Positions 8,066 through 24,324 of a DNA stretch of 25,515 nt are shown piece after piece. The stretch is from Myxococcota bacterium (GTDB lineage Bacteria; Myxococcota; JACRCW01), in the NCBI GenBank assembly GCA_040752415.1, contig JBFMGU010000156.1, positions 1-25,515 on the forward strand. Direction: 5' to 3'. Position 1 is the first letter of the stretch; every line of letters begins with the position of its first letter. A program made the position numbers and the translations under genes. Below the pieces are notes generated by a model, which was not told the DNA's origin, made no database searches, and worked only from the letters and a program-made list of their open reading frames with translations.

Positions 8066-10855
8066 TCAGGGGAAGTGGTTCAGGAGCACACTGACGTCGT
8101 CGCTGCTCTGGTTGCACGCGGCCAGGTCCGGCTTCCCGTCGCCATTGAGGTCCACCACCACCACGCCCACCGGCTGCGTACCCACCGGCTCGTCGGCGCC
8201 CAGCGGGGTGAACGTGCCGTCACCCGCGCCGAGCATCACGCGCACCATCCCGTCGCCGTGGGCGCTGGCCAGGTCGTCATTCCCGTCGGCGTTGAGATCC
8301 GCGGAGCGGAGCGCGGCGGGGCTGGTGCCCACCGTCAGGTAGCCGGGCGACTGCATGCCCGTGCCATCCATGCCCACCAGCGCCAGCAGCGCGGTCTCCG
8401 GGAGGGTCACCGCCACGTCGGGGCGACCGTCACCCTGCAGATCCACCGGCCCCACCTGCTCGGGGACATGGGCCAGCGTGACCCGGCTGTGCTCGACGAA
8501 GGTGCCGTCGCCCTGCCCCGTCATCAGGATGAGCTCGCTGTTGGCGGCGTCCACCACCACCACGTCCACCGCCGCATCCCCGACGAGATCCCCCGCCCAC
8601 AGCCCGCTGAGCTGCGTCCCCACCACCACGCTGGCGGGCGGACCCAGGGTGCCGTTCCCGTCGTTGAGGAGCACGGTGAGGGTGCCGTCTCCGTCCACCA
8701 CCAGCACGTCGGGTGCGGCGTCGCCGGTGAGGTCCACGGCCTGCAGCGCATTGGGGTTGGTCCCGGTGACGACGAGCGAAGGCGTGGGGAAGGATCCGTC
8801 GGGCTGCTGCATGAGCACGCTGATCCCCCCCTCGAACACCTCGGCCACCACCAGGTCCAGGCGGCCGTCGCCGTCCAGGTCCGCGGCGTCCACGTCGACG
8901 GGGGAGCTGACCACGGGCACCTCCGTGCGGCGGGTCAGCGTTCCGTCCCCCACGCCGTGCAGCAGGGTCACCGCCGCCGTGGTGAACGAGGCCACCGCGA
9001 GATCCGGACGCGTGTCTCCGTCGATGTCCGCGGCGGTGAGCGACTGGGGACCGGCGCCCACCGCGTAGGCGACCGCGTCGGCGAAGAGCGCGGCGGGTGA
9101 GACGGGCTGGCACACGTGGGGGGTGCCGCCGCCGGCGCACTGCAGCGGGGGCGTGCAGGAGCCGCACTCGACGACGCCGTTGCACCCGTCGGGAATCGCG
9201 TCGCACTCGAAGCCGGGCGGGCATTCCGTGAGGGGAACGCAGCCGCCGCTGCTGGAGCTGGTGCTGCCCCCGGAGCTGCTGGTGCTGCTGGAGCTGCTGC
9301 TTCCCGACGAGGATGTGCTCCCTCCCGACGAGCTGCTGGTGGAGGTTCCCGCGGGGAGCTCCGCCAGGTTGGCCAGGATGTGGACGCGCGCGGTGCTGTA
9401 GACGGCCACCGCCACGTCGGGACGGCCGTCGCCGGTGACGTCGCCCACGCTGGCGTGGAGGGGTTGCGCCTCCAGCGGCACGGTGGCCACCAGCGGGAAG
9501 GACCCGTCGGCCTGGCCCTGCAGCGCGTGGATGGCGCCCGCCGCGTCGACCACCACGAGATCCATGCGGCCGTCCCCGTCGAGATCGGCGGCGGCGGACT
9601 GGGTGGGCGCGTTGCCGGCGGGATGGGACACGTCGGCAGCGGACAACCCGGACGCGGTACCCCGACGGACGCGCAGCAGGCCCTCTTCCGTGGAGGACAC
9701 GACCACGTCGGTGAGCGCGTCCTCGTCCAGCTCCGTGGCCAGCACGTGGATGGGCGCGCGACCCGCGGTGAGCTGCTGCGCCGTCCCCAGCGCGCCGTCG
9801 ACGGAACCGGGCAGCAGGTTGAGCCGGTTGGCGGAGAAGTCCACGGCGGCCACGTCGAGCCATCCGTCGTGGTCCGCGTCCAGGACCGCCACGGCATTCG
9901 CGTACTCGCCCAGCGGATAGGACACCGGCGCGGAGAGCACGCCGCCGCCTTCCCCGAGCAGCACGCTCACCGCGCCGTCGTCGTTGGCCACCACCACGTC
10001 GGGGATGGCGTTATCATCCAGCAGCGCCACGGCAAGCGCATTGGGACCCACGCCGGCGGGATACGCCGCGGCCTCGGCGAATTGCAGCCCACCCAGGCCC
10101 CGCAGGACGCTCACACTGTTGCCCGCGATGTTGGCCACTGCCAGGTCCAGCACGCCGTCCACGTCGAGGTCCGCGGCCTGCACCGCCACCGGGGAGAAAC
10201 CGACGGAAAGCGAGGCGACCAGCTCCCAGCTCCCGCCGCCCAGGTTGCGCCAGACCACCACGCGGTGATCCACGGCGTCGGCGACCACCAGGTCCACCTG
10301 GCCATTGGCGTCGAGATCCGAGAGCAGCACGCTGGTGGGACCGGCCACGTCCTCCAGGCTGGCCACCCGCGCAAAGCCGGCGTTGCCGCCGCATTGATTC
10401 GCCACCCCGCCTCCCGAGCAGGACCGGGGCCACAGGCAGCTTCCGCAGGAGATGGGCACGCCGCAGTCGTCCCAGGTGCCGCACTCGTACCCTGGGGGAC
10501 ACCGGTTCTGGCGCGTGCACCCGCCGCTGCTGGAGCTGGAGGTTGACGTCGTGGACGCGCTGGAGGACGTGCCGCCGGTGGTGGAGCCCGTGCTGCTCGT
10601 GGAGCTGGTGCTGCCACCCGTGCTCGTCGACAGGGACCCGCTCGAGGACGACGAGGAAGCCGCCCCCGACGACGACGCGCTACCGCTGGACGACGACGAA
10701 GCCGAGGAGGACACGACGCTGGACGAGGCCACCGAGCCACTGCTGGACGACGAGCTCACGGTCTCCACGCCAGCGTCGGAAGACACCGGAGGCGGCGGCG
10801 GACACCCCACCAACACCCACACTCCCACCAACGCAAGCACACGACGGGAACGCAT
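8066..10855 (-). CDS. FG-GAP/VCBS-repeat lipoprotein with two repeat blocks, Ser-rich linkers and Cys-rich modules (929 aa)
   Basis: Start MRSRRVLALVGVWVLVGC is lipobox-like. Many D-L-D-G-D-G-x-x-D-L-(A/V)-V repeats occur in two blocks. Each block is preceded by a poly-Ser/Thr linker and a CPPG(Y/F)EC...CGSC...C.GGG...C module. Confidence 0.88.
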   Translation of the reverse strand: MRSRRVLALVGVWVLVGCPPPPPVSSDAGVETVSSSSSSGSVASSSVVSSSASSSSSGSASSSGAASSSSSSGSLSTSTGGSTSSTSSTGSTTGGTSSSASTTSTSSSSSGGCTRQNRCPPGYECGTWDDCGVPISCGSCLWPRSCSGGGVANQCGGNAGFARVASLEDVAGPTSVLLSDLDANGQVDLVVADAVDHRVVVWRNLGGGSWELVASLSVGFSPVAVQAADLDVDGVLDLAVANIAGNSVSVLRGLGGLQFAEAAAYPAGVGPNALAVALLDDNAIPDVVVANDDGAVSVLLGEGGGVLSAPVSYPLGEYANAVAVLDADHDGWLDVAAVDFSANRLNLLPGSVDGALGTAQQLTAGRAPIHVLATELDEDALTDVVVSSTEEGLLRVRRGTASGLSAADVSHPAGNAPTQSAAADLDGDGRMDLVVVDAAGAIHALQGQADGSFPLVATVPLEAQPLHASVGDVTGDGRPDVAVAVYSTARVHILANLAELPAGTSTSSSSGGSTSSSGSSSSSSTSSSGGSTSSSSGGCVPLTECPPGFECDAIPDGCNGVVECGSCTPPLQCAGGGTPHVCQPVSPAALFADAVAYAVGAGPQSLTAADIDGDTRPDLAVASFTTAAVTLLHGVGDGTLTRRTEVPVVSSPVDVDAADLDGDGRLDLVVAEVFEGGISVLMQQPDGSFPTPSLVVTGTNPNALQAVDLTGDAAPDVLVVDGDGTLTVLLNDGNGTLGPPASVVVGTQLSGLWAGDLVGDAAVDVVVVDAANSELILMTGQGDGTFVEHSRVTLAHVPEQVGPVDLQGDGRPDVAVTLPETALLALVGMDGTGMQSPGYLTVGTSPAALRSADLNADGNDDLASAHGDGMVRVMLGAGDGTFTPLGADEPVGTQPVGVVVVDLNGDGKPDLAACNQSSDDVSVLLNHFP

Positions 10856-10942
10856 GGCCCTCCAGGGGAACCCGAGTGCCGCGCTCAAGGCAAGTTCGCG
10901 GCACACGGGCGCAGAGCGAAGTGATAGCCTCTCCATCGGCCC

Positions 10943-11344
10943 ATGACGAAATCCTTCTGGTACACCCTGAGCGGGAACAGCATGGCGCCCGCCCTCAGGG
11001 ACGGCGAGAGCATCTTCCTGGAGCCACTGACGGGCGCGCCTCGTCGTGGAGACGTGGTGGTGCTGCGTCTGCCCACGGGCTGGGTGGTGCACCGCGTGCT
11101 GCGCGCCAACGGCAACATGGTGGTCACGCGCGGTGACGCGTGCGTGCGCGCGGATCCCGGGATGGGTCGTGATGCCGTGCTGTATCGCGCCACGCAGGTT
11201 CTGCGCGACGGACAACCACACCCCATTCCCGCGCCCTCCCCCGCGCTGCGGCTCCAACTCCGACGGGCACTTGCCCGCGTCCCACGTGTTGCTTCGCTGT
11301 TGCGGGGTCTGCGACGCGCACTGGTGGCGGAAGGGCTGGCCTGA
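10943..11344 (+). CDS. S24/S26-family peptidase (signal-peptidase-like, no transmembrane anchor)
   Basis: Motifs SGNSMAPAL (catalytic Ser box), RRGDVVV, VVHRV and VTRGDA. The stop overlaps the next start (TGATG). Confidence 0.82.
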   Translation: MTKSFWYTLSGNSMAPALRDGESIFLEPLTGAPRRGDVVVLRLPTGWVVHRVLRANGNMVVTRGDACVRADPGMGRDAVLYRATQVLRDGQPHPIPAPSPALRLQLRRALARVPRVASLLRGLRRALVAEGLA

Positions 11345-14300
11345 TGACGTCGAGCAGTGTGCGCGATCCAGGCGTGCGCGTTTGCCTCGCCCTTCTGGTG
11401 ACCACCGCGTTGACGTGGAGCGCGGACGCGCGCGCGCAGGCCACCGGGTACGTGCAGACGGTGGGATTGGCGCAGAGCAAGACGTCGTCCAGCACGCTCT
11501 CGGTCACGGTGGGCACGGCGGTGACGGCGGGCAATCGCGTGGTGATTGCGTTTGCCATGGATGACGTGTCTGGAACCGTCTCCGCGTCCGACACCGCGGG
11601 GAACAGCTACGCCGTCGACGCCGATTCGCAGAACACCGGCACGGTGCGCAACGTCATCCTCAGCGCGCACATGAGCAGCGGGCTGGCGGTGGGCAACACC
11701 ATCACGGTGAGCTTCCCCACCGTCACCGCCAAGGCCATGGTGGTGGCCGAGTACTACGGCGTGGCGCCCACCAACGCGGTGCACGGAACCGCCTCCAACA
11801 CCGCCACCAGCGGGGTCATCAGCACCGGGTCGGTCACCACCACGCGCGCGGACATCCTGCTGGTGGGCACGGTGGGAACGGAGGGACCGGAAGCGGACAA
11901 CATCTCGCCGTACAACAACTTCACCGGCGTGGCCAAACGCGGCACCACCGGCGGCACCGACAACACCAACATCACCGCCGGCATGGGCCTGCGCGTGGTG
12001 ACAACGACGGGGAGCTACACCGGCGACGCCACCATCAGTCCCTCCCGCTCCTGGGCCGCCGCGTTGGTGGCCTACCAGTCCGCGCCCTCCACGCTTGCCT
12101 TCAGCAACGCCACGAGGACACTGACCGCGGGCAGCTGCGGAGGCAGCACGAACGTCTTCACGTTGGAGACGCGGTCCAGCGGCGGCAGCGCGGTTCCGCC
12201 CACGGGGAGCACGGTGGTGGCGGTCAGCTCCACCACGGCCACCGCCACGTTCTACTCCGACGCCACCTGCACCACCGCGCTGCCCGTCTCCAGCGGCGCC
12301 GCGCAGGTCACGTTCACCAGCAGCGAGAGCAGCAAGAGCATCTACGTGCTGGACACCGCGGTGGGCACGGCCACCATCAGCGCCTCCCAGGTCTCCGGCC
12401 CGGACACGCTCTCCGCGACGAGCCAGGCCTACACGGTGACCGGCGGCGTGGGCTCCAATTCGTCCAAGACCACGGGCACCAGCCTGTCGGTCACGGTGGG
12501 CAGCGTCGGGGTGAACCAGGATGAGCGCATCGTGGTGGCGTTCGCCATGGACTACACGGCAACTGCCACGCCGGCGTTGGCCTGCGCGGACAGCAAGGGC
12601 AACAGCTACGCCATCGACGCCAACATCCCCAACACGGGCGGCGTGCGCACCGTGGTCTTCACCGCCCATGCCGCCCAGGCACTGGTCAGCGGCGACGTCA
12701 TCACCGTGACCCATCCCTCGGTGGCCGCGCGAGCCATGACGGTGTCGCGCTTCGTGGGTGTGGCCTCCAGTGGTGCCCTGGACCGGACGAGCGTGCGCAC
12801 AGGAAGCATTACGTCGGTGACCTCCAACGCCACGGCCACCACCACGCGCGCCCACGAGCTGGTGATCGGCGTGACCGGCGTGGAGGGCGTGACTTCCGAT
12901 GGCTACACGCCCACCGGAGGCTTCACGCTGGACTCGCAGGCGGGAACCACCGGGGGCGGCGCGAACACCAACATCGCGGTCTTCCTCACCTTCAAGGAGG
13001 TTTCGACGACGGGCACGCAGACGTCCACCGGCAACCTTGGCACCGCCCGGGACTGGGCCGCCGCGGTGGCCACCTACAAGCTGGTCCCGAACAAAGTCGT
13101 CATCAGCAGCAACCCCTCACCGCTGACCGCGGGCGTGGGCGAGGCGTTCACGCTGCAACCGCAGAGCGTCAAAGGCGTGGCCATGCCGCCGCTCACCGAC
13201 ACCACTGCCACGGTGACGACGACGAGCGGGAACGCCACGCTGTATCCGGGCACCGCGTGCACGGGGACTTCGGGCAGCACCGTCACGTTCTCCGCCAGCG
13301 CCACCTCCCCCTACACCACCGACGTATGCGTGCTGGATCGTCGCAAGTCGGCTCCCACGCACACGCTGCAGGTGACCTCGTCATCGTTGACGGGCACCAG
13401 CGGGACGTACGTGGTGGACGCGGGCGCGCTGAGTCGCCTCGCGGTGGCGCTGCCGGGTCAGACGTTCACCGACGGGAGCGGCGTCAGCGGGACCGCCTCG
13501 AACCAGACCGCGGGAACGGCCTTCACGCTGGCCGACCTCGCCGGCACGGACGACTACGACAACGTTGTCTCCTCGTTCAGCGGCACATACACGCTCAGCT
13601 ACAGCGGTCCCAGCAACGCGGGCGACGGCACGCCACCGCAGTACACCACAAGCGCTTCGTTCACCTCCGGCGTGGCAACCACGTCGCTGGTGACGACGTT
13701 GGTGAAGGCGGAGACGGTGGCCATCACGGTGACGGGTGGCGGGGTTTCGGGCACTTCCTCCCTGGTCACGGTGGTGGCGCCGGCGGACACCACGTCGGTC
13801 TCCGCGGTGGGAACGGGCTACGCCAACCGGACCAGCGGCGTGGTGCAGGTGAGCGTGGTCAACGGCACCGGCGGCGGACTCGTCCGCGTGGACCTCGACG
13901 CGCCCAGTGGCTTCCTATGGGATCCCACGTCGGGGTCCACCACGGTGGCGGGGTGGAGCGTGACCTCGTCGAGTGCGAGCACCATCACGTTCGAGGGACC
14001 GGCGAGCGCGTTCCTGAACGGCGCCACGGGCAGCTTCTCCGCCACCAACGCAGGCGGCCTCTACCCCAACAACGCCGTCGACACCGACCACGACGTCGTG
14101 GTGACCTGGGACGGCTACCAGTCGGGAGCGGCAACCGCCGCGTTCACCGTGCTGGTGCCCATTGGCAACGTGGTGCTGCCCGCGGTGAGCCGCTCCGCCG
14201 CATCCGCGCGCCCCACCTTCTACTGGACCAACTCCGACGAGTACCGCACCCATTCCGGCGTGTTGATCCTGCGCGGCAGCGACGTTCCCGTCGACGGTGT

Positions 14301-15636
14301 CACCTACGCGGCGGGCGATACGCTGGGCAGCTCCGTGGTGGTCTGCGTGGATGGCGGCACGGGACAGGGCTGCACGGAGAGCACCTCCGTGACGCAGGAC
14401 GACGCCACGCAGCGCTACGTGTTCCACAACTTCGACGCGTCGCAGGTCTACGCCACCGGCGTGGCCATCAGCGTTCCCGCCCGGCCGGCGCAGGGCTTCC
14501 TCTACAAGCACAGCGCGGCCGGCATGACGCCACCGGGGGTCCGCCCCGGCTCGCTCAGTCCGCCCGGCTTCGCCACCTTCGCCGCCAACGACCTGGGCCT
14601 CTACTTCGTCCGTCGTGACGGGACGGAGGAACGACGCGCGGTCCTGCTCAACAACCAGGTCACCCGCCGCTCCCTGCCACTCTCCGACGCCAGCGCAGGC
14701 TACGCCGTCTTCACCGCCGACTCCGGCAGCCCCAACCCCGGCACCCTCTACCGCGTGGAACCGAGCGGAAGTCCCACCACCTCGACGACGACGGCGGCGG
14801 TCAGCAGCGGCGTGGGCGCGTTGCTCACCTCGTCGGCGGCACTGCACAGCACCTACAAGGCCAACGGACCGGCCCTGCTGTTCGGCACCAACGAGGCTTC
14901 CGGCAACTACATCCGCGCCGTGCGCCCGGACCTCACCGCGTACTGGACGCTCAGCATTGGCACCGACGCCATCACCCACGAGGTCAACAGCGACGTCACG
15001 CGGGCGTACATGTTCGTGCCGGTGGGCGCGGGCAGCGGCGGCATCTACGCGTTCGACATGAGCGTGGACCCCGGAGCGGGCGCCGCGCCCAAGCCCAGCG
15101 GGTGGGCCTCACAGAAGATCCTCGACGGGACGCTGTTCAAGGCGCAGTGCCGCATGTCCCCCACGGCGTGGACCCAGCAGGCGCTCTTCTGCGGCAGCCA
15201 CAGCGGCACGCTCTACGCCATCAATCCCGCCACCGGCGCGGTCATTGCCACGACGTCGGTGACCGGCAGCGTGCAGGGCCTGGTGGCGATCTCCAGCGCC
15301 GGGTACGTGGTGTACTCCACGCGCAGCGGCAGGGTGGGCAAGGTCTACTTTGACGGCACCGCGTTCAAGACCGCCGCCGACGGCCAGGCCAACACGTTCG
15401 AGGTCACCGTCTCCGGCGCCGCGGTGGTGAGCACGCCCCTGCCCATCAGCGCGGGGGTGTTCGTGGGCGGGGCCGGCAAGCTGTTCAAGCTGAACCCCAC
15501 CGACGGGTCGCTCCTGGGCTCACTGGCGTTGGATGGCGTGCAAGTCAGCGAAGTGGCGCTGGAAACCTCGACGAGCACCATCTTCGTCCAGACCAGCGCG
15601 GGAACCATCTGGGGAGTGCCCGCGTCCGGCCTCTGA
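11344..15636 (+). CDS. Large secreted Thr/Ser/Gly-rich beta-structured surface protein (1430 aa): repeated N-terminal modules, Ig/FN3-like domains, probable C-terminal PQQ-like beta-propeller
   Basis: Signal peptide ending ARA|Q. Two ~200-aa internal repeats end in WAAALVAY and WAAAVATY. Propeller-like blades (GTLYAINPATGAV, GKLFKLNPTDGSLL) near the C-terminus. Continuous GC3-biased ORF. Confidence 0.85.
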   Translation: MTSSSVRDPGVRVCLALLVTTALTWSADARAQATGYVQTVGLAQSKTSSSTLSVTVGTAVTAGNRVVIAFAMDDVSGTVSASDTAGNSYAVDADSQNTGTVRNVILSAHMSSGLAVGNTITVSFPTVTAKAMVVAEYYGVAPTNAVHGTASNTATSGVISTGSVTTTRADILLVGTVGTEGPEADNISPYNNFTGVAKRGTTGGTDNTNITAGMGLRVVTTTGSYTGDATISPSRSWAAALVAYQSAPSTLAFSNATRTLTAGSCGGSTNVFTLETRSSGGSAVPPTGSTVVAVSSTTATATFYSDATCTTALPVSSGAAQVTFTSSESSKSIYVLDTAVGTATISASQVSGPDTLSATSQAYTVTGGVGSNSSKTTGTSLSVTVGSVGVNQDERIVVAFAMDYTATATPALACADSKGNSYAIDANIPNTGGVRTVVFTAHAAQALVSGDVITVTHPSVAARAMTVSRFVGVASSGALDRTSVRTGSITSVTSNATATTTRAHELVIGVTGVEGVTSDGYTPTGGFTLDSQAGTTGGGANTNIAVFLTFKEVSTTGTQTSTGNLGTARDWAAAVATYKLVPNKVVISSNPSPLTAGVGEAFTLQPQSVKGVAMPPLTDTTATVTTTSGNATLYPGTACTGTSGSTVTFSASATSPYTTDVCVLDRRKSAPTHTLQVTSSSLTGTSGTYVVDAGALSRLAVALPGQTFTDGSGVSGTASNQTAGTAFTLADLAGTDDYDNVVSSFSGTYTLSYSGPSNAGDGTPPQYTTSASFTSGVATTSLVTTLVKAETVAITVTGGGVSGTSSLVTVVAPADTTSVSAVGTGYANRTSGVVQVSVVNGTGGGLVRVDLDAPSGFLWDPTSGSTTVAGWSVTSSSASTITFEGPASAFLNGATGSFSATNAGGLYPNNAVDTDHDVVVTWDGYQSGAATAAFTVLVPIGNVVLPAVSRSAASARPTFYWTNSDEYRTHSGVLILRGSDVPVDGVTYAAGDTLGSSVVVCVDGGTGQGCTESTSVTQDDATQRYVFHNFDASQVYATGVAISVPARPAQGFLYKHSAAGMTPPGVRPGSLSPPGFATFAANDLGLYFVRRDGTEERRAVLLNNQVTRRSLPLSDASAGYAVFTADSGSPNPGTLYRVEPSGSPTTSTTTAAVSSGVGALLTSSAALHSTYKANGPALLFGTNEASGNYIRAVRPDLTAYWTLSIGTDAITHEVNSDVTRAYMFVPVGAGSGGIYAFDMSVDPGAGAAPKPSGWASQKILDGTLFKAQCRMSPTAWTQQALFCGSHSGTLYAINPATGAVIATTSVTGSVQGLVAISSAGYVVYSTRSGRVGKVYFDGTAFKTAADGQANTFEVTVSGAAVVSTPLPISAGVFVGGAGKLFKLNPTDGSLLGSLALDGVQVSEVALETSTSTIFVQTSAGTIWGVPASGL
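14514..15437 (+). repeat. Copy 1 of a ~924-bp direct repeat (copy 2 at 19255-20178)
   Basis: Constant offset of 4741 bp. Off-frame ORF translations are identical (14615-15061 vs 19356-19802; 15102-15353 vs 19843-20094). The first mismatches flank the tract at 14513/19254 and 15438/20179. Confidence 0.93.
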
Positions 15637-15737
15637 CGTCTGAAACAACGGAGTGTGCCCACGTCACAGATCCGGGGTCCGCGCTGCGGATACGATTGTT
15701 GACGTATCACGAGGCACTTCCTACAGTATTTCCTCGT

Positions 15738-15752
15738 TGGCACGCGGTTTGC
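15738..15752 (+). promoter_or_regulatory. Sigma54 (-24/-12) promoter upstream of the PqqD gene
   Basis: TGGCACG-CGGT-TTGC matches TGGCACG-N4-TTGC with exact GG-N10-GC spacing. It lies in the only sizeable, relatively AT-rich intergenic gap of the cluster. Confidence 0.7.
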
Positions 15753-15776
15753 CCACATTCACCGACGGGTCCGGAC

Positions 15777-16118
15777 ATGAACGGCGACAGCACTCAGTCC
15801 GCAGCGGCATCGGCGACCCCAGGGCCAGCGTCGCTGGAGGCGGTGCCGGTGGTGGGGAGCCGGTGCGCGTGGCAGTCGCTGGACGGTGAAGCGGTGGTGA
15901 TTGACCTCACCGCCCGGCGCGTCATGGGCCTGAACCCGGCCGGCACGCTGCTGTGGAGCCACGCCGACGGCAAGCGCACGGTGCGCGAGCTGGCGGAGCT
16001 GCTGGCGGCGCGGTTCGCGTTGACGGCGCCCACGGCGGAGGCCGACGCGGCGAGCTTTGTGGGCAAGATGGTGGCACGGGGGCTGATGGACCTGCGGTCC
16101 CCGACGGGGGACCCATGA
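15777..16118 (+). CDS. Stand-alone PqqD-family protein / RiPP recognition element (113 aa)
   Basis: WQSLDGEAVVIDLTARRVMGLNPAGTLLWSHADGKRTVRELAELLAARFAL...AEADAASFVGKMVARGLM is the typical three-strand, three-helix PqqD pattern. ATGA overlap with the next gene. Confidence 0.92.
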   Translation: MNGDSTQSAAASATPGPASLEAVPVVGSRCAWQSLDGEAVVIDLTARRVMGLNPAGTLLWSHADGKRTVRELAELLAARFALTAPTAEADAASFVGKMVARGLMDLRSPTGDP

Positions 16119-19100
16119 GCGTGCGCCTGCTCTTCCCCTCCGCGGTGGTGGCCGTGGTGGCGTTGTCCGCCCCGGTACACGCCCAGGTTGCCGCACGGGT
16201 GAAGAACCTGGGCACGGCACAGAACAAGACCGCGGGGAGCAACACGCTGACGGTGACGGTTCCCTCGGGAGGGGTGGCGCAGAACAACCGGATCATCGTG
16301 GCGGTGGCCATGGACGCGGTCAGCGGCACGGTCAGCGCCTCGGACTCGCGCGGGAACAGCTACGCCGTCGACGCGGACGTGACCAACTCCGGGACGGTGC
16401 GCACGCTCATCCTGAGCGCCAACGCAAGCACGTCCCTGACGGCGGGGAACACCATCTCCGTCACCGTGCCGTCCGGCGCCACGGCCAAGGGGATCGTCGT
16501 CAGCGAGTACTCCGGCCTGATGCCCAGCGGGGCCCTGGACAAGACCGCCACGGGGACGGGCAACAGCCGCAACCCCGCCACCAGCAGTGCCACCACCACC
16601 CGCGCCAACGAGATGCTGATTGGCGTGGTGGGCGCGGAAGGCCCGGAGAACGACGTGCTGAGCCCGGGCGGCTCCTTCACCACCGACGCCAAGGCCGGCA
16701 CCAGCGGCAACCCCGCGGCCACCAACGTCACCGCCACGCTGCTGTACCGGGAGGTCACCGCCACGGGGAGCTACGCGGTCTCCGCCCGACTGAACACCAG
16801 CCGCGCCTGGGCCGCCGCCATGGCCACCTACCGCGCCGCGCCCAGCAAGGTGGTGTTCACCAACACCAACCGCATCCTCTCCGCCGGCGTGTGCAGCGGC
16901 ACCAGCAATCCGTTCACGGTGGTCCTGCAGAGCAGCAACAGCGCCGCGGTCCCGCCCACCGGCACCACCGTGCTGGGCGTGAGCTCCACGTCGGGGACGG
17001 CCACGTTCTACTCGGACTCCGCGTGCACCACGGCCATCACGCAGCTCACCTTCAGCAGCACGGAGAGCAGCAAGACGTTCTACGTGCTGGACACGCAGAC
17101 CTCGTCGGGATCACCCACGCTGACGGTTTCCAAGGTCTCCGGCCCGGACACGCTGAGCGCGGCCACGCAGACCTACGCGGTGAACGGAACCATTGGCTTT
17201 GCGCAGAGCACCAACCCCGCGGTGACCACGCTGTCCATCACGCTGGGAACCACGGTGCCGGTGAACAACCGCGTTGTCATCACCTTTGCCATGGATGATC
17301 CCAGCGGCGGCACCATCACGGCGTCGGACAGCCGCGGCAACACCTACTCCACCGACCTGGACGTGCGGTCGCAGAACCAGGTGCGCGCGTTCATGTTCTC
17401 CGCCAACACCACCACCGCCCTGGTGCCCGGGGACACCATCAGCGTGACCTTCCCGTCGGTGACGGCGAAGGCGATGACGGTGGCCTACTTCTCGGGACTG
17501 GCGCAGACCGGCGCGGTGGACGTCACCACCAGCACCACCGGCTCGGGCACGTCGGTGACGAGCAACAGCGCCACCACGTTGCGCGCGCAGGACCTGCTGA
17601 TGGGGCTGGTGGGGGTGGAGGGCCCGTCCACGGAGACCATCACCGCGGGCAACAGCTTCAAGGTGGAAGGGAGCTACGGCACCAACGGCGACGGCGGCGC
17701 GGGTGACATCTCCGTGCACATGTTGTCGCGCCAGGTCACGGCCACCGGCAGCTACGCCGCCACGGGTACGCTGTCGCAGTCGCGCAAGTGGGCGGCGGGG
17801 ATGGCGGCGTACAAGCTGGCCCCCTCGCAGATTGTCTTCACCAACACCACGCAGACGCTGACGGCGGGAACCTGCAGCGGCACCGCCGCGCCCTTCACCC
17901 TGGAGCTGCGCAACGCCACCGGCGTGGCCGTGCCGCCCACCGGCACCACGGTGGTGAACCTGGTCCAGCCCACCGGCTCCAACGCGCTCTTCTACAGCGA
18001 CAGCGGCTGCACCACGGCCATCACCAGCGTGACGTTCTCCTCCACGCAGAGCAGCCAGACCTTCTACGTGCGCGACACCGTCGCCGCCACGCACACCCTC
18101 ACGGTGCAGAAGGCTTCCGGTCCCGAGGCGCTCACCGACGCGTCGCAGAGCTACACGGTGAACCGCCTGGCCGCCGACCGCCTCATCGTCACGCTGCCCG
18201 GCGAGACCTTCACGCCCGGCTTTGGCAACAGCGGGACGGTGACCACGCAGACCGCCAGCGTGCCCTTCGACATCGTCGACATCACGATGACCGACGTCTA
18301 CCACAACGTGGACACCAGCTATTCCGGCAGCGTCACGCTCAGCTACAGCGGTCCCTCCGCGGGTCTGGACGGCAGCCAGCCCAGCTACACCACCGCGGTC
18401 ACCTTCAACGCCGGCCAGGTGTCCACCGCGCTCCCCACCACGCTGCAGCGCGCGGAGACCGTTTCCCTCGTCGTCAGCGGGGCGGGGCTGAGCGGCACGT
18501 CCTCACCGCTCACGGTGGTGCTGCCGGCGGATACCACCACGGCGTCCGTCACCAACTCGCCGGCCTACGCGGCGCGCAGCAGCGGCGAGATCGAGGTGAG
18601 CATCACCAACGGCACCAGCGGGCTCATCAACCAGGTGGTGCTCACGGCGCCGTCGGGGTGGACGTTTGACGCGGGCAGCACCAGCCTCAGCGGATGGACG
18701 GTGAGCGCGGCGGCGGGCGCGGTGACCTTCAGCGTGGGAACCGGGGCCGCGTTCAGCAACGGAAGCACCGCCACCTTCCGCGCGCGCAACAGCGGCGGCT
18801 TCTACCCCAACCCCGCCAGCGACACGACGTACACGGTGCCCATGGCGTGGTCGGGGTTCCAGCCGGGAAGCAGCAGCGCTTCCTTCACGGTGATGGTGCC
18901 CATTGGTTGGGTCGAGCTGCCCGCGGTGAGCCGCTCCGCCACCAGCGCGCGTCCGGTCTTCTACTGGACCAATTCCGACGTCAGCCAGACGCACGCCGGC
19001 GTCATGGTGGTGCGCGGAACCGACCGGCCCACCGACAAGCAGGCCTACGCCGTGGGCGAGGTCATTGGCAGCTCGGTGGTGGTGTGCGTGGACGGCGGCA

Positions 19101-20371
19101 CGGGAGAGAGCTGCACGGAGAGCACGTTGGTGACGCAGGACGACGGCAGCGCCACCTACACGTTCTACAACTTCGACGCGCTGTACGGGTATTCGAACCC
19201 GCGGAGCATCGTCGTGGCGGCGCGGCCGGGCACGGGGTTCTTCTACAAACACGCCGCGGCCGGCATGACGCCACCGGGGGTCCGCCCCGGCTCGCTCAGT
19301 CCGCCCGGCTTCGCCACCTTCGCCGCCAACGACCTGGGCCTCTACTTCGTCCGTCGTGACGGGACGGAGGAACGACGCGCGGTCCTGCTCAACAACCAGG
19401 TCACCCGCCGCTCCCTGCCACTCTCCGACGCCAGCGCAGGCTACGCCGTCTTCACCGCCGACTCCGGCAGCCCCAACCCCGGCACCCTCTACCGCGTGGA
19501 ACCGAGCGGAAGTCCCACCACCTCGACGACGACGGCGGCGGTCAGCAGCGGCGTGGGCGCGTTGCTCACCTCGTCGGCGGCACTGCACAGCACCTACAAG
19601 GCCAACGGACCGGCCCTGCTGTTCGGCACCAACGAGGCTTCCGGCAACTACATCCGCGCCGTGCGCCCGGACCTCACCGCGTACTGGACGCTCAGCATTG
19701 GCACCGACGCCATCACCCACGAGGTCAACAGCGACGTCACGCGGGCGTACATGTTCGTGCCGGTGGGCGCGGGCAGCGGCGGCATCTACGCGTTCGACAT
19801 GAGCGTGGACCCCGGAGCGGGCGCCGCGCCCAAGCCCAGCGGGTGGGCCTCACAGAAGATCCTCGACGGGACGCTGTTCAAGGCGCAGTGCCGCATGTCC
19901 CCCACGGCGTGGACCCAGCAGGCGCTCTTCTGCGGCAGCCACAGCGGCACGCTCTACGCCATCAATCCCGCCACCGGCGCGGTCATTGCCACGACGTCGG
20001 TGACCGGCAGCGTGCAGGGCCTGGTGGCGATCTCCAGCGCCGGGTACGTGGTGTACTCCACGCGCAGCGGCAGGGTGGGCAAGGTCTACTTTGACGGCAC
20101 CGCGTTCAAGACCGCCGCCGACGGCCAGGCCAACACGTTCGAGGTCACCGTCTCCGGCGCCGCGGTGGTGAGCACGCCGCTGCCCATCAGTCGCGGCATC
20201 TTCGTGGGTGGGGCGGGCAAGCTGCACAAGCTGGACAACGCCACCGGCGCGCTGCTGGGCAGCCAGACGCTGGACGGAGTGCAGGTCAGCGAGGTGGCGC
20301 TGGAGACGTCCAGCAGCACGTTCTTTGTCCAGACCAGCGACGGCACCATCTGGGGCATTCCCGCCTTCTGA
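16115..20371 (+). CDS. Large secreted surface protein (1418 aa), paralog of 11344-15636
   Basis: ATG at 16115 with a GGGGA RBS. Signal peptide MSVRLLFPSAVVAVVALSAPVHA|Q. Same domain order as the first copy, with an identical stretch in the C-terminal region. Confidence 0.87.
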   Translation: MSVRLLFPSAVVAVVALSAPVHAQVAARVKNLGTAQNKTAGSNTLTVTVPSGGVAQNNRIIVAVAMDAVSGTVSASDSRGNSYAVDADVTNSGTVRTLILSANASTSLTAGNTISVTVPSGATAKGIVVSEYSGLMPSGALDKTATGTGNSRNPATSSATTTRANEMLIGVVGAEGPENDVLSPGGSFTTDAKAGTSGNPAATNVTATLLYREVTATGSYAVSARLNTSRAWAAAMATYRAAPSKVVFTNTNRILSAGVCSGTSNPFTVVLQSSNSAAVPPTGTTVLGVSSTSGTATFYSDSACTTAITQLTFSSTESSKTFYVLDTQTSSGSPTLTVSKVSGPDTLSAATQTYAVNGTIGFAQSTNPAVTTLSITLGTTVPVNNRVVITFAMDDPSGGTITASDSRGNTYSTDLDVRSQNQVRAFMFSANTTTALVPGDTISVTFPSVTAKAMTVAYFSGLAQTGAVDVTTSTTGSGTSVTSNSATTLRAQDLLMGLVGVEGPSTETITAGNSFKVEGSYGTNGDGGAGDISVHMLSRQVTATGSYAATGTLSQSRKWAAGMAAYKLAPSQIVFTNTTQTLTAGTCSGTAAPFTLELRNATGVAVPPTGTTVVNLVQPTGSNALFYSDSGCTTAITSVTFSSTQSSQTFYVRDTVAATHTLTVQKASGPEALTDASQSYTVNRLAADRLIVTLPGETFTPGFGNSGTVTTQTASVPFDIVDITMTDVYHNVDTSYSGSVTLSYSGPSAGLDGSQPSYTTAVTFNAGQVSTALPTTLQRAETVSLVVSGAGLSGTSSPLTVVLPADTTTASVTNSPAYAARSSGEIEVSITNGTSGLINQVVLTAPSGWTFDAGSTSLSGWTVSAAAGAVTFSVGTGAAFSNGSTATFRARNSGGFYPNPASDTTYTVPMAWSGFQPGSSSASFTVMVPIGWVELPAVSRSATSARPVFYWTNSDVSQTHAGVMVVRGTDRPTDKQAYAVGEVIGSSVVVCVDGGTGESCTESTLVTQDDGSATYTFYNFDALYGYSNPRSIVVAARPGTGFFYKHAAAGMTPPGVRPGSLSPPGFATFAANDLGLYFVRRDGTEERRAVLLNNQVTRRSLPLSDASAGYAVFTADSGSPNPGTLYRVEPSGSPTTSTTTAAVSSGVGALLTSSAALHSTYKANGPALLFGTNEASGNYIRAVRPDLTAYWTLSIGTDAITHEVNSDVTRAYMFVPVGAGSGGIYAFDMSVDPGAGAAPKPSGWASQKILDGTLFKAQCRMSPTAWTQQALFCGSHSGTLYAINPATGAVIATTSVTGSVQGLVAISSAGYVVYSTRSGRVGKVYFDGTAFKTAADGQANTFEVTVSGAAVVSTPLPISRGIFVGGAGKLHKLDNATGALLGSQTLDGVQVSEVALETSSSTFFVQTSDGTIWGIPAF
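19255..20178 (+). repeat. Copy 2 of the ~924-bp direct repeat
   Basis: Matches 14514-15437 at offset 4741. Confidence 0.93.
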
Positions 20372-20378
20372 GGAACCC

Positions 20379-20837
20379 ATGCGCGCAGCACCTCCGAGAT
20401 TCCCGTGGTCCCTGCTCGCCGGCGCGCTGCTGGCCGCCGCGTGTCAGCAGGAGGTGGGCCCACCGGAAACCCAAGCTCCGACGGGAGAAGCGCCTCCGCC
20501 CGCCGCTGGCGCTCCCGCGGGTCGTCCGGAAATCACCGTGCGCGGGGAGTCGGGTGAGGCAAATCTCCACGTCGGCGACAGCGCAGCCATCCTGCAGACG
20601 CGCTGGCCCAAGCCGGAGCCGGGGGATCGTCAGAATCTTGAGCTGTTCACCCCCGACGGAAACCTGTATCTCCGCAACACCAGCCCGGTGCCCGCCGACG
20701 GCGTGGTCTCCCAGCGCCTGCCGCTGCGGGGTAGCCACATCGAGGACTACAGCATGACGGGGACCTGGCGGGTCCGCGTCTACCGCAACAGCGCCACCGT
20801 GCCTGCGGCGGAAACCAGCTTTGAAGTGAAACTGTGA
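20379..20837 (+). CDS. Putative lipoprotein with a small Ig-like C-terminal domain (152 aa)
   Basis: GAGGA RBS overlapping the previous stop. Lipobox-like LLAAAC, a Pro/Ala linker, then LELFTPDGNLY...MTGTWRVRVY...SFEVKL. Confidence 0.82.
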   Translation: MRAAPPRFPWSLLAGALLAAACQQEVGPPETQAPTGEAPPPAAGAPAGRPEITVRGESGEANLHVGDSAAILQTRWPKPEPGDRQNLELFTPDGNLYLRNTSPVPADGVVSQRLPLRGSHIEDYSMTGTWRVRVYRNSATVPAAETSFEVKL

Positions 20838-20867
20838 CGTCGTGGGATTGGCCCTTGTTGTGACCTG

Positions 20868-21029
20868 ATGAAGAACCCGTTGCCCACCCCCACCCGCCCG
20901 CCGGCCGCGCCCTCCCCGGAGCGCTACGAGCCGCCCACGATTGCGTGGGAGGAGGACTTCGAGCCGGCGGGGCAGTCCACCGGCTGCCTCACGGGGGAAG
21001 GCGACTGCCTGGACGCGCCCGCGACGTGA
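20868..21029 (+). CDS. Putative RiPP precursor peptide (53 aa; not in the ORF track)
   Basis: MKNPLPTPTRPPAAPSPERYEPPTIAWEEDFEPAGQSTGCLTGEGDCLDAPAT*. 51 of 53 codons end in G/C. It has a YxxPxI motif and a two-Cys core, and fills the gap between the lipoprotein and kinase-like genes. No strong RBS is visible. Confidence 0.8.
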   Translation: MKNPLPTPTRPPAAPSPERYEPPTIAWEEDFEPAGQSTGCLTGEGDCLDAPAT

Positions 21030-21039
21030 GGAACGCGTG

Positions 21040-21822
21040 ATGCAGCCCACGGTGATTCCGCTGGAGATTGCACGCGTCCGGTTTGACGTGGCGAGTGAGG
21101 ACGGCGCCCTGCTCTCCCGCCTGCGCACCAGCTACGGACCCTTTGTGACGGCGGAGCGCGGGGGCATCCGCGTGAGCCTGGCCGGTGAGCCCGCGGCCCT
21201 GGCCGGCAACCCCAGCGGCGAGGTGGTGCGCGAGGACGAGGAGCTGCGCCTGCGGATGAGCCCACAGATGGGCTTCCTGGATCGTCGACGAGGCCAGGGC
21301 ACCCTGCGTCCCCACCCCAGCCTGCTGGGGCTGGACATGCTGTTGCGCGCGGAGATCACGCTGCGGGCGCTGGAGGCCGGGGGCGTGGCGCTGCATGCGT
21401 GTGGCGTGGAGCTGCGGGGTCGGGCGCACGTGTTCGCGGGGCCGTCCGGCGCGGGGAAGACCACGCTGGCGGGAATGCTGGAGCGCGAGGGCGCGCGCGT
21501 GCTTTCCGACGAGATGATGGTGGTCCGCCCCGGTGACGACGGACGCTGGTGGGCGTACGGCACACCCTACCGTTACGGCACGCGTGAGGGTGCGCCGCTG
21601 CACGCGTTGTGGCGGTTGCGGCACGGGCCGCGCTCGGTGCGCGCGCTGACGCGTCACCAGGCGCACCGGCACCTGGTGGGGAATCTCAGCCTGTGCGTGC
21701 GCGGTGACGTCGAGGTGGAGCTGGCCCTGGCGGGCGCCACGCGGCTGGCCGCCGCCGTTGACGCGCATGAGCTGACCTTCTCGCTCACCGACGCGCTGCG
21801 CGACGTGGTGGAGGCGGCATGA
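21040..21822 (+). CDS. HPr-kinase-related P-loop protein (260 aa)
   Basis: ALHACGVELRGRAHVFAGPSGAGKTTLA...VLSDEMMVVR: His-Ala motif, Walker A and SD(D/E) signature of HprK-like kinases. GAGGA RBS before ATG 21040. ATGA overlap with the radical SAM gene. Confidence 0.85.
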   Translation: MQPTVIPLEIARVRFDVASEDGALLSRLRTSYGPFVTAERGGIRVSLAGEPAALAGNPSGEVVREDEELRLRMSPQMGFLDRRRGQGTLRPHPSLLGLDMLLRAEITLRALEAGGVALHACGVELRGRAHVFAGPSGAGKTTLAGMLEREGARVLSDEMMVVRPGDDGRWWAYGTPYRYGTREGAPLHALWRLRHGPRSVRALTRHQAHRHLVGNLSLCVRGDVEVELALAGATRLAAAVDAHELTFSLTDALRDVVEAA

Positions 21823-22913
21823 CCACGACGTCGAACTACGGACGCTGGAAGGCGCGCGCGGCCTCCGCGGGACGCCCCACCACGGCGCACCTGGAGCTGA
21901 CCTACCGCTGCAACGTGCAGTGTCGACACTGCTTCCAGGACCGTCACCACGCGAAGGACGCGATGGCGCTGGAGGACTGGAAGCGCGTGGTGGACGAGGC
22001 GCGTGAGGCGGGCGTGCTGGTGGTGACCTTGAGTGGCGGCGAGGCGTTGCTGTCGCCGCACTTCTGGCCGCTGGCGGAGCACATCCGCGCCCGGGGACTG
22101 GCGTTCCGCGTGTTCACCAACGGGGTGCTGCTGAACAAGCGGAATTGTCGTCGGCTGGCGGCGCTGCAACCGCTGAGCGTGGAGGTCTCCATCTTCAGCC
22201 TGGACCCCGCGGTCCACGACGGCGTGACGCAGGCGCCCGGTTCCCTGCGCAAGGCGCTGCGCGGGTTGGCCATGCTGCATTACCTGGGCGTGACCACCAA
22301 GCTGAAGTGCCCGCTGCTGGACACCTCCACCAAGGACTACGCCGACGTGCGCGCGCTGGCGGAGCGGCTGGGCGCAAGCGTGGCGTTCGACCCGGGCATC
22401 ACCCCGCGCTTCAACGGCGACCTGGCTCCCACGGCGTGCCGCGGAGATGAGCATTTCCTGGTGGAATTCTTCCGCGACCCGCAGACGCGCCACCACGAGC
22501 TGAAGGACCTGCCGCCGCGCAAGCCGGGCGACGCCATCTGCGGCATTGCCCGCACCTTCACCGTGGTGGGCCCCGACGGGCGCGTGCTCCCGTGCGTGCA
22601 CATCCAGCAGCCGGTGGGGAATGTGAAGCAGGAAGGGCTGCTGCGGATCTGGGAGCACTCCCCGACGCTGCAGAAGCTGCGCCAGACCACCTACGCGGAC
22701 CTGCCGACGTGCAATGGCTGTCCGCGCAGCGGGTACTGCGGGAGGTGCAGCGCGGTGGCATTGCTGGAGGACGGAGACTTCCACGGTCCTTCGTCCCGCG
22801 CGTGTGAGCTGGCGGAGCTGAAGGAGCAGGCGTGGGGCGTGCCGCCGCCGGCCGGGGTGCGGGAGAAGACAGGAACCACCGCGGGGAAGCGGCTGCTGCA
22901 GGTCTTGCGGTAG
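21819..22913 (+). CDS. Radical SAM / SPASM-domain peptide or protein maturase (364 aa)
   Basis: ELTYRCNVQCRHC (CxxxCxxC), LSGGEAL and FTNG. Seven-Cys SPASM domain: CGIA...GRVLPC...GNV...CNGCPRSGYCGRC-x18-C. No N-terminal RRE. Confidence 0.95.
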   Translation: MTTTSNYGRWKARAASAGRPTTAHLELTYRCNVQCRHCFQDRHHAKDAMALEDWKRVVDEAREAGVLVVTLSGGEALLSPHFWPLAEHIRARGLAFRVFTNGVLLNKRNCRRLAALQPLSVEVSIFSLDPAVHDGVTQAPGSLRKALRGLAMLHYLGVTTKLKCPLLDTSTKDYADVRALAERLGASVAFDPGITPRFNGDLAPTACRGDEHFLVEFFRDPQTRHHELKDLPPRKPGDAICGIARTFTVVGPDGRVLPCVHIQQPVGNVKQEGLLRIWEHSPTLQKLRQTTYADLPTCNGCPRSGYCGRCSAVALLEDGDFHGPSSRACELAELKEQAWGVPPPAGVREKTGTTAGKRLLQVLR

Positions 22914-22948
22914 TTGGGGGCTGCGCGACGGTCGCCGAAGCGACGACG

Positions 22949-24136
22949 TCAGCCGAGGGCCGCGCTGCGCAAAAGACCCGGTGCGCACGCCAGCGCCGCG
23001 CGCGGCAACGCCTCCATGCCACAGGTGGCGCCGAGCATGCGGGAGAACAGGTCCGGCCGTCCCGCCAGGGAGCGCACCATGAGCCACACCAGCGCGCGGT
23101 GTCGCGAGGCCATGAGGACGCCGTGGGTGAGGACCTGGTGGTCGCGCACCAGCTCGTGGCGAGCCCGGGCGTAGTCGCGCAGCGCGTGGGCGCGCAGATC
23201 CCCCGTGTCCAACGCACGCAGGATGGTCCGCGCCGCCAACGGGGCGCTCTGCAGCGCCAGGCTCATCCCCTCGCCGGTGATGGCGTCCACGTAGCCCGCG
23301 GCGTCGCCCACCAGGAGCGCGGCGTCGGCCACCACGTCACGCGCTTCCACGCGCAACGGACCGCAAGCGCGAACGTCCGTGATCGGCTCCGCGCCGGAGA
23401 GCATCTCCATCACCGCCGGCACCTGCCGCAGCACGCCCTGGTAGCCACGCGTGAGATCCCCGCGCATGACCTCCATCCGCGCCTTCTCCAGCAGGCACAC
23501 CACGTTGGCCCCGTCGGGTCCCGAGGGCGTCACGTAGACCTCGCCGCCGCCCATCAGGTGCACGTGCACCAGTCCGTCGGTGAGCGGGCGGGCCAGGCGG
23601 TAGTGGCACACCACGCCGTAGCGGTTGTTGCCGTGGTGTCCCCCGTCCAGCCCCAGCCTGCGCCGCACCAATGAGCGCGCACCGTCCGCCCCGACGAGAA
23701 ACCGCGCCTGCCACGTCCCCTCACGCGTCTCCACGTACCAGCGGTCATCCTCCCGACGGAGCGCGCGCACCGGCTCGCCCTCGCGTCGCTCCGCGCCGGC
23801 GTCGCGGGCCATGGCGGCCATCACCACGTCCAGCTCCAGGCGGCGGATGCACAGGCCCTCCGCTCCGTCGGGGAAGTGGCCCACCGCGGTGCGTCCGGCG
23901 GCGTGGTAGGCAATGCCGCGCATGGGTCGGGCCCCGCGCGCGCGCACCGCGTCCAGCACGCCCAGGTCCCGCAGCGCGTCCACCCCGCCGGGCATGATGC
24001 CCTCCCCGCAGGGCTTCTCCCGCGGGAACGACTCCGCCTCCAGCACCATGACCTTCACGCCACGACGCGCCAGTGTTGCCGCCACCGCGCAGCCCGCCAC
24101 GCTCCCACCCACCACGATCACGTCGTAGTTCGACAT
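22949..24136 (-). CDS. FAD-dependent oxidoreductase (geranylgeranyl reductase / flavin monooxygenase-like)
   Basis: Motifs YDVIVVGGSVAG, FPREKPCGEG, LVGADGARS and LLVGDAAGYVDAITGEGMSLAL. Confidence 0.9.
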   Translation of the reverse strand: MSNYDVIVVGGSVAGCAVAATLARRGVKVMVLEAESFPREKPCGEGIMPGGVDALRDLGVLDAVRARGARPMRGIAYHAAGRTAVGHFPDGAEGLCIRRLELDVVMAAMARDAGAERREGEPVRALRREDDRWYVETREGTWQARFLVGADGARSLVRRRLGLDGGHHGNNRYGVVCHYRLARPLTDGLVHVHLMGGGEVYVTPSGPDGANVVCLLEKARMEVMRGDLTRGYQGVLRQVPAVMEMLSGAEPITDVRACGPLRVEARDVVADAALLVGDAAGYVDAITGEGMSLALQSAPLAARTILRALDTGDLRAHALRDYARARHELVRDHQVLTHGVLMASRHRALVWLMVRSLAGRPDLFSRMLGATCGMEALPRAALACAPGLLRSAALG

Positions 24137-24324
24137 ATCCGTTCCGTCCCCGGCGACGCCTCCTTAGCGCAGGGTCGAGGGTGGGGGAAGCATGTGGACG
24201 ACGGTCCGGTTACGCTCCTGGCCGCTGCGGACTTCGCGCGAGCGTGGCCTGTGACGCGAATGCCGGGCGCGCTCCCGCCGGAGCTTGTTATCGTGCGCGG
24301 CGCTCCTGGGAGGACCGGCCGCAC

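Follow-up and report, generated by a model that had tools for sequence, protein, structure and literature searches.

The 25,515-nucleotide contig JBFMGU010000156.1 of a Myxococcota bacterium (GenBank assembly GCA_040752415.1; hereafter the window) carries, at positions 20868–21029 of its forward strand, a short open reading frame (ORF) that an earlier note had proposed as a hidden precursor of a peptide made by the ribosome and modified after translation (RiPP). Our data demonstrate that this ORF is a real, conserved gene, and it almost certainly encodes a RiPP precursor; homologous peptides with the same neighbouring genes are found in other genomes. The family is best described as a pathway like that of the linear polyphosphorylated peptides (LPPs) plus a radical S-adenosylmethionine (SAM) step. 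We consider it likely that the peptide of the window is the precursor in such a pathway, in which a discrete PqqD-type RiPP recognition element (RRE), an HprK-like kinase, a radical SAM/SPASM enzyme and a peptidase resembling signal peptidase I (SpI) would act on it.

The precursor gene and its peptide family

The translation of the ORF, MKNPLPTPTRPPAAPSPERYEPPTIAWEEDFEPAGQSTGCLTGEGDCLDAPAT followed by a stop codon, reproduced exactly what had been reported. The count of 51 codons ending in G or C among 53 also held (the exceptions being ATT25 and GAA44), the G+C content at the three codon positions being 0.66, 0.64 and 0.96, and third-position values in the neighbouring genes lying between 0.77 and 0.92. 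In a control on four neighbouring genes, none of 6520 off-frame windows of 53 codons contained at least 51 G/C-ending codons, versus 991 of 3260 in-frame windows. The stop codon does overlap the ribosome-binding site of the kinase-like gene, TGA (21027–21029) forming part of TGAGGA and 7 nt separating this sequence from the ATG at 21040. The strongly conserved AWEEDFEP block was compared in nine DNA copies from several lineages: it is invariant at the protein level, and its variable sites number 0, 0 and 6 at codon positions 1, 2 and 3. Such restriction of all six to third codon positions is a mark of selection on the reading frame of the precursor. A scan of positions 10500–24300 returned one promoter-like site (0.4 expected) and three terminator-like sites (5.4 expected).

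Homologous peptides of 52–60 residues occur in many genomes and metagenomes. A search of a large protein set with the single sequence recovered one further member, a three-sequence profile 17 representative proteins at E≤1e-3, and a 24-member profile 259 protein clusters among 784 candidates, for which the sole name given was “hypothetical protein”. Pattern scans added three relatives among 151 matches in genome contigs, two of them labelled Candidatus Binatia and Candidatus Rokuibacteriota, and eight relatives among 250 matches in metagenome contigs. Of 401 genomes sampled in the phylum of the window, 79 gave a match to the 24-member profile; the motif was seen in eight of ten loci inspected among these and was not seen in two, and the carriers in the phylum include 100%-complete single-contig genomes. 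No family model fits: NCBIfam accounts for none of the 24 members and Pfam for one, weakly, and a protein atlas offered unnamed clusters only (best 0.92), with DUF5972 (0.80) and Subterisin (0.76) below the lead threshold. The closest relative of the precursor, ...AYEAPAVAWEEDFEPAGQVTGCSDNIGNCDERPEVV, comes from a genome of the same family; there the peptide, MMTRPNPTQPASSSQTVPAYEAPAVAWEEDFEPAGQVTGCSDNIGNCDERPEVV, lies directly upstream of a kinase-like gene whose product is 39–42% identical to that of the window (by tblastn and alignment) and of a radical SAM gene whose product is 60% identical.

The family is built around the block Y-x-x-P-x-(I/V/F)-x-W-(E/D)-E-x-(F/L/Y)-(E/D)-P. In 24 aligned members, P23 and E29 (window numbering) are invariant and Y20 and W27 are kept in at least 90%. 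The N-terminus ahead of the block is variable, Pro-rich and about 16–31 residues long, and the stretch from the block to the first Cys takes about 4–6 residues with Ser/Thr at its end; 86 of 88 members with the strict motif have a Ser/Thr within three residues ahead of the first Cys. The two Cys are separated by 6 residues in 11 of these members, 7 in 3, 8 in 14 and 9 in 59, and the tail of 5–7 residues terminates in Ser in 63 of the 88 and in Thr in 10, 73 in all. Two groups can be told apart. The window peptide, with Y20-x-x-P23-x-I25, C40 and C47 (C-x6-C), C40-x3-E44 and C47-L-D49, belongs to a variable A-like group, which has C-x6-C and often C-x3-P after the second Cys. The B-like group is the largest and has a near-fixed core, PYVFS(T/M/A)CGKMPxQGGAC....S.

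Much of the earlier reading of this peptide is borne out by the family. The YxxPxI motif, taken for a leader element bound by PqqD-like RREs, is the most conserved part of the 24 aligned members, and a PqqD-family gene lies in the same gene string; the two-Cys core is retained, with both Cys present in 87 of the 88 strict-motif members; and conservation of the neighbourhood extends to the radical SAM/SPASM gene. A proposed seven-residue echo within the core (TGCLTGE/GDCLDAP) does not survive, with two of seven residues in common (C and L) and TGCSDNI/GNCDERP in the closest homologue. A CX3E thioether, weighed below, fell as a feature of the family. The note had also overlooked three components, namely the kinase as a probable modifier, the PqqD-family protein and the candidate leader peptidase.

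Partner enzymes and synteny

The protein encoded directly downstream of the precursor gives local matches to the NCBIfam models HprK_rel_A (1.9e-10), HprK_rel_B and ScmC, all below their cut-offs, and a sequence search of solved structures returned P-loop matches only. Its AlphaFold2 model (predicted local distance difference test score, pLDDT, 93.2; predicted template modelling score 0.90) matched phosphoenolpyruvate carboxykinase (PEPCK; 5e-8) and Lactobacillus casei HprK/P (1kkl_B; 6.6e-6 and 1.2e-5) in Foldseek. Residues H119, G134, G137, G139, K140, T142 and D157 are invariant in seven homologues, and we take them to match the His, P-loop and Asp motifs of HprK/P. Fold and motifs thus fit membership of the HprK-like kinases, with sequence-family scores below curated cut-offs. 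This protein is probably a second modifying enzyme of the cassette; the LPP study describes Ser phosphorylation by kinases of this kind in lasso peptides and in LPPs (PMC13381572).

The next gene encodes a radical SAM/SPASM enzyme (Pfam Radical_SAM 3e-19, SPASM 3.1e-10) with the CX3CX2C motif at C31/C35/C38, SPASM-region Cys at 241, 259, 298, 301, 307, 310 and 329, and no N-terminal RRE domain. Against the NCBIfam equivalogs, thioether maturase models included, it scored below every cut-off, and its best solved relative is PqqE (6c8v, 3.5e-12). The radical SAM proteins of B-like loci are 38–40% identical to it.

The RRE is supplied by a discrete PqqD-family protein (PF05402, 53.6 bits, over cut-off, at 15888–16085 in a search of the genome for PqqD), with matches below cut-offs to the NCBIfam ScmD, PqqD and lasso PqqD models. 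Homologues are encoded in every homologous locus of sufficient length (loci are designated by L numbers; L039, L059, L045, L046, L050, L051 and L054), and in L062 and L063 the PqqD gene lies directly upstream of the precursor. A predicted 193-residue metagenomic protein, P0024, carries a PqqD domain 46% identical to that of the window that runs straight into …AAAAYEPPAIAWEEDFEP…; whether this is a genuine fusion or results from reading through two neighbouring genes, it ties PqqD to the leader block. In its AlphaFold2 model the leader block has a pLDDT of 74 and the linkers 50–65, with no strand assigned. The C-terminal part of P0024 has one Cys (…QLQGCDIL), and a similar tail is found in L063 in a separate ORF of 60-odd residues after PqqD. 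P0024 and L063 may represent a third subfamily in which kinase and radical SAM genes do not lie directly downstream. A predicted complex of the window's PqqD protein and peptide scored 0.54 versus 0.02 for the best of three controls, with runs agreeing in at least 98% of contacts and a partner pLDDT of at least 53. Of 157 solved complexes, 116 attained the mark that it reached, as did 2 of 215 mismatched pairs; the range up to 0.60 holds just 18 of the 157 solved complexes and both passing mismatches. The prediction lends weak support. RRE–leader complexes have already been solved, and the score therefore shows likeness, not binding.

The candidate leader peptidase was located by a search with the small ORF that precedes PqqD in B-like loci. 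It exceeds the cut-offs of Pfam Peptidase_S24 (31.4 bits) and Peptidase_S26 (24.9 bits), and its best NCBIfam match, below cut-off, is to archaeal-type signal peptidase I (TIGR02228, 3.7e-8). Homologues are present in L045, L046, L050, L051, L054, L042, L043, L062 and L063. In the window, peptidase, giant protein 1, PqqD, giant protein 2, a lipoprotein-like ORF, precursor, kinase and radical SAM genes form one co-directional string on the forward strand, with overlapping stops and starts between peptidase and giant 1, PqqD and giant 2, and kinase and radical SAM genes (Table 1).

Gene order was compared across 13 peptide-bearing loci (the window, L039, L059 and L045–L054), of which L048, L050 and L051, whose proteins are 98–100% identical, count as one observation and not as independent ones. 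A kinase homologue lies directly downstream of the peptide in 12 of the 13. In the remaining locus, L047 (1–1880), an IS110-family transposase takes the place of the kinase behind an A-like precursor, and this cassette is probably disrupted. The radical SAM gene follows the kinase in 10 of 13 loci, that is, in all ten that reach far enough, the contigs of L046 and L052 ending inside the kinase; PqqD was seen in 8 and the SpI-like peptidase in 6. B-like loci have the order peptidase, PqqD, methyltransferase, precursor, kinase, radical SAM, NTP_transf_5. In the B-like loci L045, L046 and L048–L054, a class I SAM methyltransferase gene lies directly upstream of the precursor and the NTP_transf_5 gene after the radical SAM gene. 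NTP_transf_5 genes are present in L039, L045, L048, L051, L062 and L063.

The genome of the window carries a second, diverged cassette (L059; contig C188, 2322–13547) in the order PqqD, a giant protein of about 2900 residues, a 60-residue peptide, kinase and radical SAM. Its precursor (11438–11620), …TYAPPSVESAEAFE…C-x13-C…S with YAPPSV...AFE, was detected by the profile (2.7e-9), and a single-sequence search of the same genome returned the self-match and noise only. A more distant relative in L043, …PYEAPRLEQVEIV…C…C…C…S, lies beside radical SAM, kinase and peptidase genes, and a 1206-residue Peptidase_C25 protein is encoded divergently from that cassette (9980–13600). In L062 and L063 the order is NTP_transf_5, peptidase, PqqD, precursor, and the 1.5 kb downstream gave no match to a kinase or radical SAM gene.

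Table 1. Features of the cassette and its surroundings in the window (nucleotide positions; residue numbers for parts of the precursor).
Feature	Position	Strand	Remarks
Signal-peptidase-I-like (S24/S26) Ser/His peptidase	10943..11344	+	133 aa; SGNSMAP, VHRV, TRGD
Giant secreted protein 1	11344..15636	+	1430 aa; syntenic neighbour
Discrete PqqD-family RRE	15777..16118	+	113 aa; 4.7 kb upstream of precursor
Giant secreted protein 2	16115..20371	+	Paralogue of protein 1; syntenic neighbour
Lipoprotein-like small ORF	20379..20837	+	Lipobox LAAAC; weak MG2-like domain; directly upstream of precursor
Precursor peptide gene	20868..21029	+	53 aa; basis: homologues, third-position G+C content, third-position-only variation, synteny
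Precursor, N-terminus	residues 1-19		Pro-rich, variable
Precursor, recognition block	residues 20-33		YEPPTIAWEEDFEP; conserved
Precursor, junction	residues 34-39		AGQSTG; carries conserved Ser/Thr
Precursor, two-Cys core	residues 40-53		CLTGEGDCLDAPAT; variable, Thr at end
HprK/PEPCK-fold P-loop kinase-like protein	21040..21822	+	260 aa; LHA...GPSGAGKTT...LSDE
Radical SAM/SPASM enzyme	21819..22913	+	364 aa; start overlaps kinase stop (ATGA)
FAD-dependent monooxygenase	22949..24136	-	Convergent; geranylgeranyl-reductase family 144 bits (cut-off 158.8), QhpG 105.9 bits (cut-off 240)

Proposed pathway, related systems and alternatives

The gene content suggests four steps. The discrete PqqD-type RRE would bind the YxxPxI block and hand the peptide to the enzymes. 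The HprK-like kinase would phosphorylate a Ser or Thr, for which S37/T38 ahead of C40, or Thr53, are the candidates. The radical SAM/SPASM enzyme would modify the two-Cys core. Thioether formation is the commonest chemistry of SPASM enzymes with Cys-bearing peptides, and the most likely result would be thioethers from C40 and C47 to acceptor carbons other than a conserved Asp or Glu, the B-like cores being nearly without acidic residues by either Cys; within the proposed pathway we give the thioether outcome about an even chance. Finally, the soluble SpI-like Ser/His peptidase would cut off the leader close to the small residues that precede C40. Signal peptidases prefer small residues at –3/–1, which such a cleavage would fit.

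The pathway would work like that of the LPPs with a radical SAM step added. LPPs are made by the lppA-K-B-S-D-N clusters of Bacillota, which encode SpI, RRE, HprK-like kinase, NTP transferase and MsbA-like exporter (Popov et al., Nat Commun 2026, PMC13381572). There the RRE presents the leader to the peptidase, and the kinase adds several phosphates to core Ser3. The window encodes three of these five proteins, namely a free-standing RRE, an HprK-like kinase and an archaeal-type SpI-like protease, and NTP_transf_5-type transferases occur in the loci of relatives; as in LPP clusters, there is no lasso cyclase. Both kinds of precursor are small, with an N-terminal YxxPx(V/I), a later conserved FE, nearby Ser/Thr and a variable C-terminus, and the window leader Y20-E-P-P23-T-I25 falls under the RRE leader motif [Y/W]xxPx[L/V/I/F/A] defined in that study. 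There are also differences. A radical SAM/SPASM enzyme is fixed here, while the main text of the LPP paper has no mention of one; the leader reads WEExFEP, compared with the LPP consensus YxxPxVLxHQxIxFETxxS as given there, so that YxxPx(I/V) and the later FE are common and their spacing is off by two residues. The core here has two conserved Cys, the window has no NTP transferase and no MsbA-like exporter among the 15 proteins picked by eye for scanning, and the hosts are GC-rich uncultured lineages and not Bacillota.

Paeninodin-type lasso systems, in which an HprK-like kinase acts on the precursor, targeting a C-terminal Ser, and an NTP transferase serves as a secondary modifier, resemble the family in the YxxP/WxxP leader with a PqqD-type RRE, in the HprK-like kinase and in the frequent C-terminal Ser/Thr, and differ in that no macrolactam synthetase or B2 protease is present on the contig and a radical SAM gene is. 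The SynChlorMet (ScmC/D/E/F) and GeoRSP cassettes have the same architecture of HprK-like protein, PqqD and radical SAM/SPASM enzyme, and the ScmC, ScmD, ScmE/F and GeoRSP radical SAM and PqqD models are among the best matches of the window proteins, but the scores fall far below cut-offs (ScmC 25.3 of 125, ScmD 35 of 100, GeoRSP radical SAM 90.9 of 400); our search of the literature returned no paper on either cassette. In sactipeptide and ranthipeptide loci, too, the precursor bears Cys and has a SPASM radical SAM maturase as its neighbour, but here the RRE is discrete and not fused to the radical SAM enzyme, there are two Cys only and no conserved acceptor motif, and a kinase and an SpI-like protease are added. 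Pyrroloquinoline quinone (PQQ) and mycofactocin precursors carry E-x3-Y and C-terminal GVY motifs, respectively. The peptide has neither, and the radical SAM enzyme scores 87.9 for PqqE and 109.5 for MftC, with cut-offs of 381 and 265.

Several observations weigh against the proposed pathway, all steps of which are inferred from gene content. The distance from the precursor to the RRE gene upstream is 4.7 kb, and to the peptidase gene 9.5 kb, with two giant genes in between; both genes overlap giant-gene starts and so could serve the giant proteins instead. The top-scoring relatives of the radical SAM enzyme (NirJ2, MftC, AhbD, PqqE) are not thioether formers, which makes the thioether step the least secure. 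No ABC transporter or exporter domain was found among the 15 scanned proteins, and the sole over-cut-off PF14907 (NTP_transf_5) match of the genome is on contig C270, outside the window. Synteny is also incomplete: no SpI-like gene lies in the vicinity in L039 (18 kb), the closest locus from the same family, whose genome carries its copy on another contig, and L065 and L068 have the motif with no neighbour match within 1.5 kb on either side. Just 17 of 31 distinct A-like tails end in Ser/Thr. Finally, the WEEDFEP block could itself be the site of modification and not a leader.

The alternative that retains most credit, although we regard it as unlikely, is that of a PapB/QhpD-like ranthipeptide, as proposed in the earlier note, with C40 linked to E44 (CX3E) and C47 to a nearby Asp or Thr. 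PapB acts on CX3D/E, the enzyme of the window is a SPASM radical SAM protein, and the window peptide has both C40-x3-E44 and C47-L-D49; among 30 distinct A-like cores, Asp/Glu stands at +4 of the first Cys in a fraction of 0.43 and at +2 of the second in 0.27. The Cys-x3-Asp/Glu motif is thus unconserved even within the A-like group, and across 88 distinct B-like cores, acidic residues amount to 0 to 0.01 per scored position from –4 to +7 of either Cys (0.01 at +4 of the first), although the radical SAM enzymes of these loci are 38–40% identical to that of the window. Because of these B-like cores, a Cys-to-Asp/Glu link of this type is not the chemistry of the whole family, and no NCBIfam thioether maturase model was reached. 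A Lys–Trp link of the streptide/WgkB type was considered separately and dropped, the A-like cores having no Lys.

We consider it improbable, somewhat more so than a ranthipeptide, that the conserved block is the business end of the peptide, the radical SAM enzyme cross-linking or oxidizing WEEDFEP (Trp, Glu, Asp, possibly with both Cys) into a cofactor or a QhpC-like unit. The invariance of AWEEDFEP would suit such a role, as would a radical SAM enzyme with a discrete PqqD partner, PqqE as top solved match and a high MftC score, and a QhpG-like flavoprotein is encoded convergently. But the YxxPx(I/V/F) RRE motif lies within the block, the conserved stretch of LPP leaders is about as long (PMC13381572), a signal-peptidase-like protease is conserved across loci, and the C-terminal part keeps two Cys with a Ser/Thr next to the first. 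The flavoprotein found no tblastn match in 15 homologous or related loci; it was dropped as a cluster member and is probably unrelated.

Very improbable, in our view, is a peptide that is only phosphorylated, as LPPs are, with the Cys pair forming a disulfide or metal site and the radical SAM enzyme acting elsewhere, for example on the giant surface proteins. The synteny of the giant proteins in the window, L059, L039 and, weakly, L045 would fit, and so would the overlap of the PqqD and peptidase genes with giant-gene starts, but the radical SAM gene comes after precursor and kinase, its start overlapping the kinase stop, and keeps that place in all ten long-enough loci, including L049 and L051, where no giant gene is in view. 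That the ORF is a chance frame or part of a lasso cluster we regard as practically negligible: long spurious ORFs are common in a window of 70% GC and YxxPxL is a lasso leader motif too, but conservation, third-position-only variation and synteny oppose the former, and a lasso peptide was rejected as the Asn_synthase (PF00733) and Transglut_core3 (PF13471) matches lie on other contigs only, none on that of the window or on C188.

Neighbouring genes and significance

The two giant secreted proteins, paralogues of about 1430 residues each, are identical over long parts of their C-terminal regions and give a weak match to a beta-propeller. Giant protein 2 is 32% identical over about 1000 residues to the product of L039 2534–6199. 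The recurrence of giant genes beside the cassette suggests that the peptide and the giant surface proteins are functionally tied. The lipoprotein-like ORF is conserved in L039 (6201–6644), and L045 and L048 keep it in part. On the reverse strand, just upstream of the cassette, are a gene for a type II/IV secretion ATPase (T2SSE; 6653–8062) and one for a 1063-residue FG-GAP repeat protein (8066–11257); at the corresponding place L045 encodes a protein with a weak T2SSC match.

An LPP-like pathway with a radical SAM step would give the HprK-like, PqqD and radical SAM/SPASM trio, flagged as cassettes by database curators, its missing substrate, and would connect these genes with the LPP pathway, which was described in 2026. 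Our literature search found no peptide, product or description for this cassette, and searches that combined the kinase with radical SAM or SPASM enzymes retrieved nothing relevant, one paper having the kinase in lasso clusters only. The predicted hybrid product, phosphorylated and modified by a radical SAM enzyme, has not been seen before. Tentatively, and with a little less than even confidence, we suggest that these peptides make up a new class of RiPPs, with two Cys, phosphorylation by an HprK-like kinase, cross-linking or other rewriting by a radical SAM/SPASM enzyme and final trimming by a soluble SpI-like protease, spread over several mostly uncultured soil and groundwater phyla and tied to giant secreted proteins. 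If this is true, the near-invariant B-like core CGKMPxQGGAC...S suggests a fixed target or a metal- or cofactor-like role, and not an arms-race antibiotic. Since complete single-contig genomes are among the carriers, some of these organisms may be cultured, and genetics and heterologous expression would then be feasible. What such peptides do at the cell surface is a question prompted by their repeated association with giant secreted proteins.

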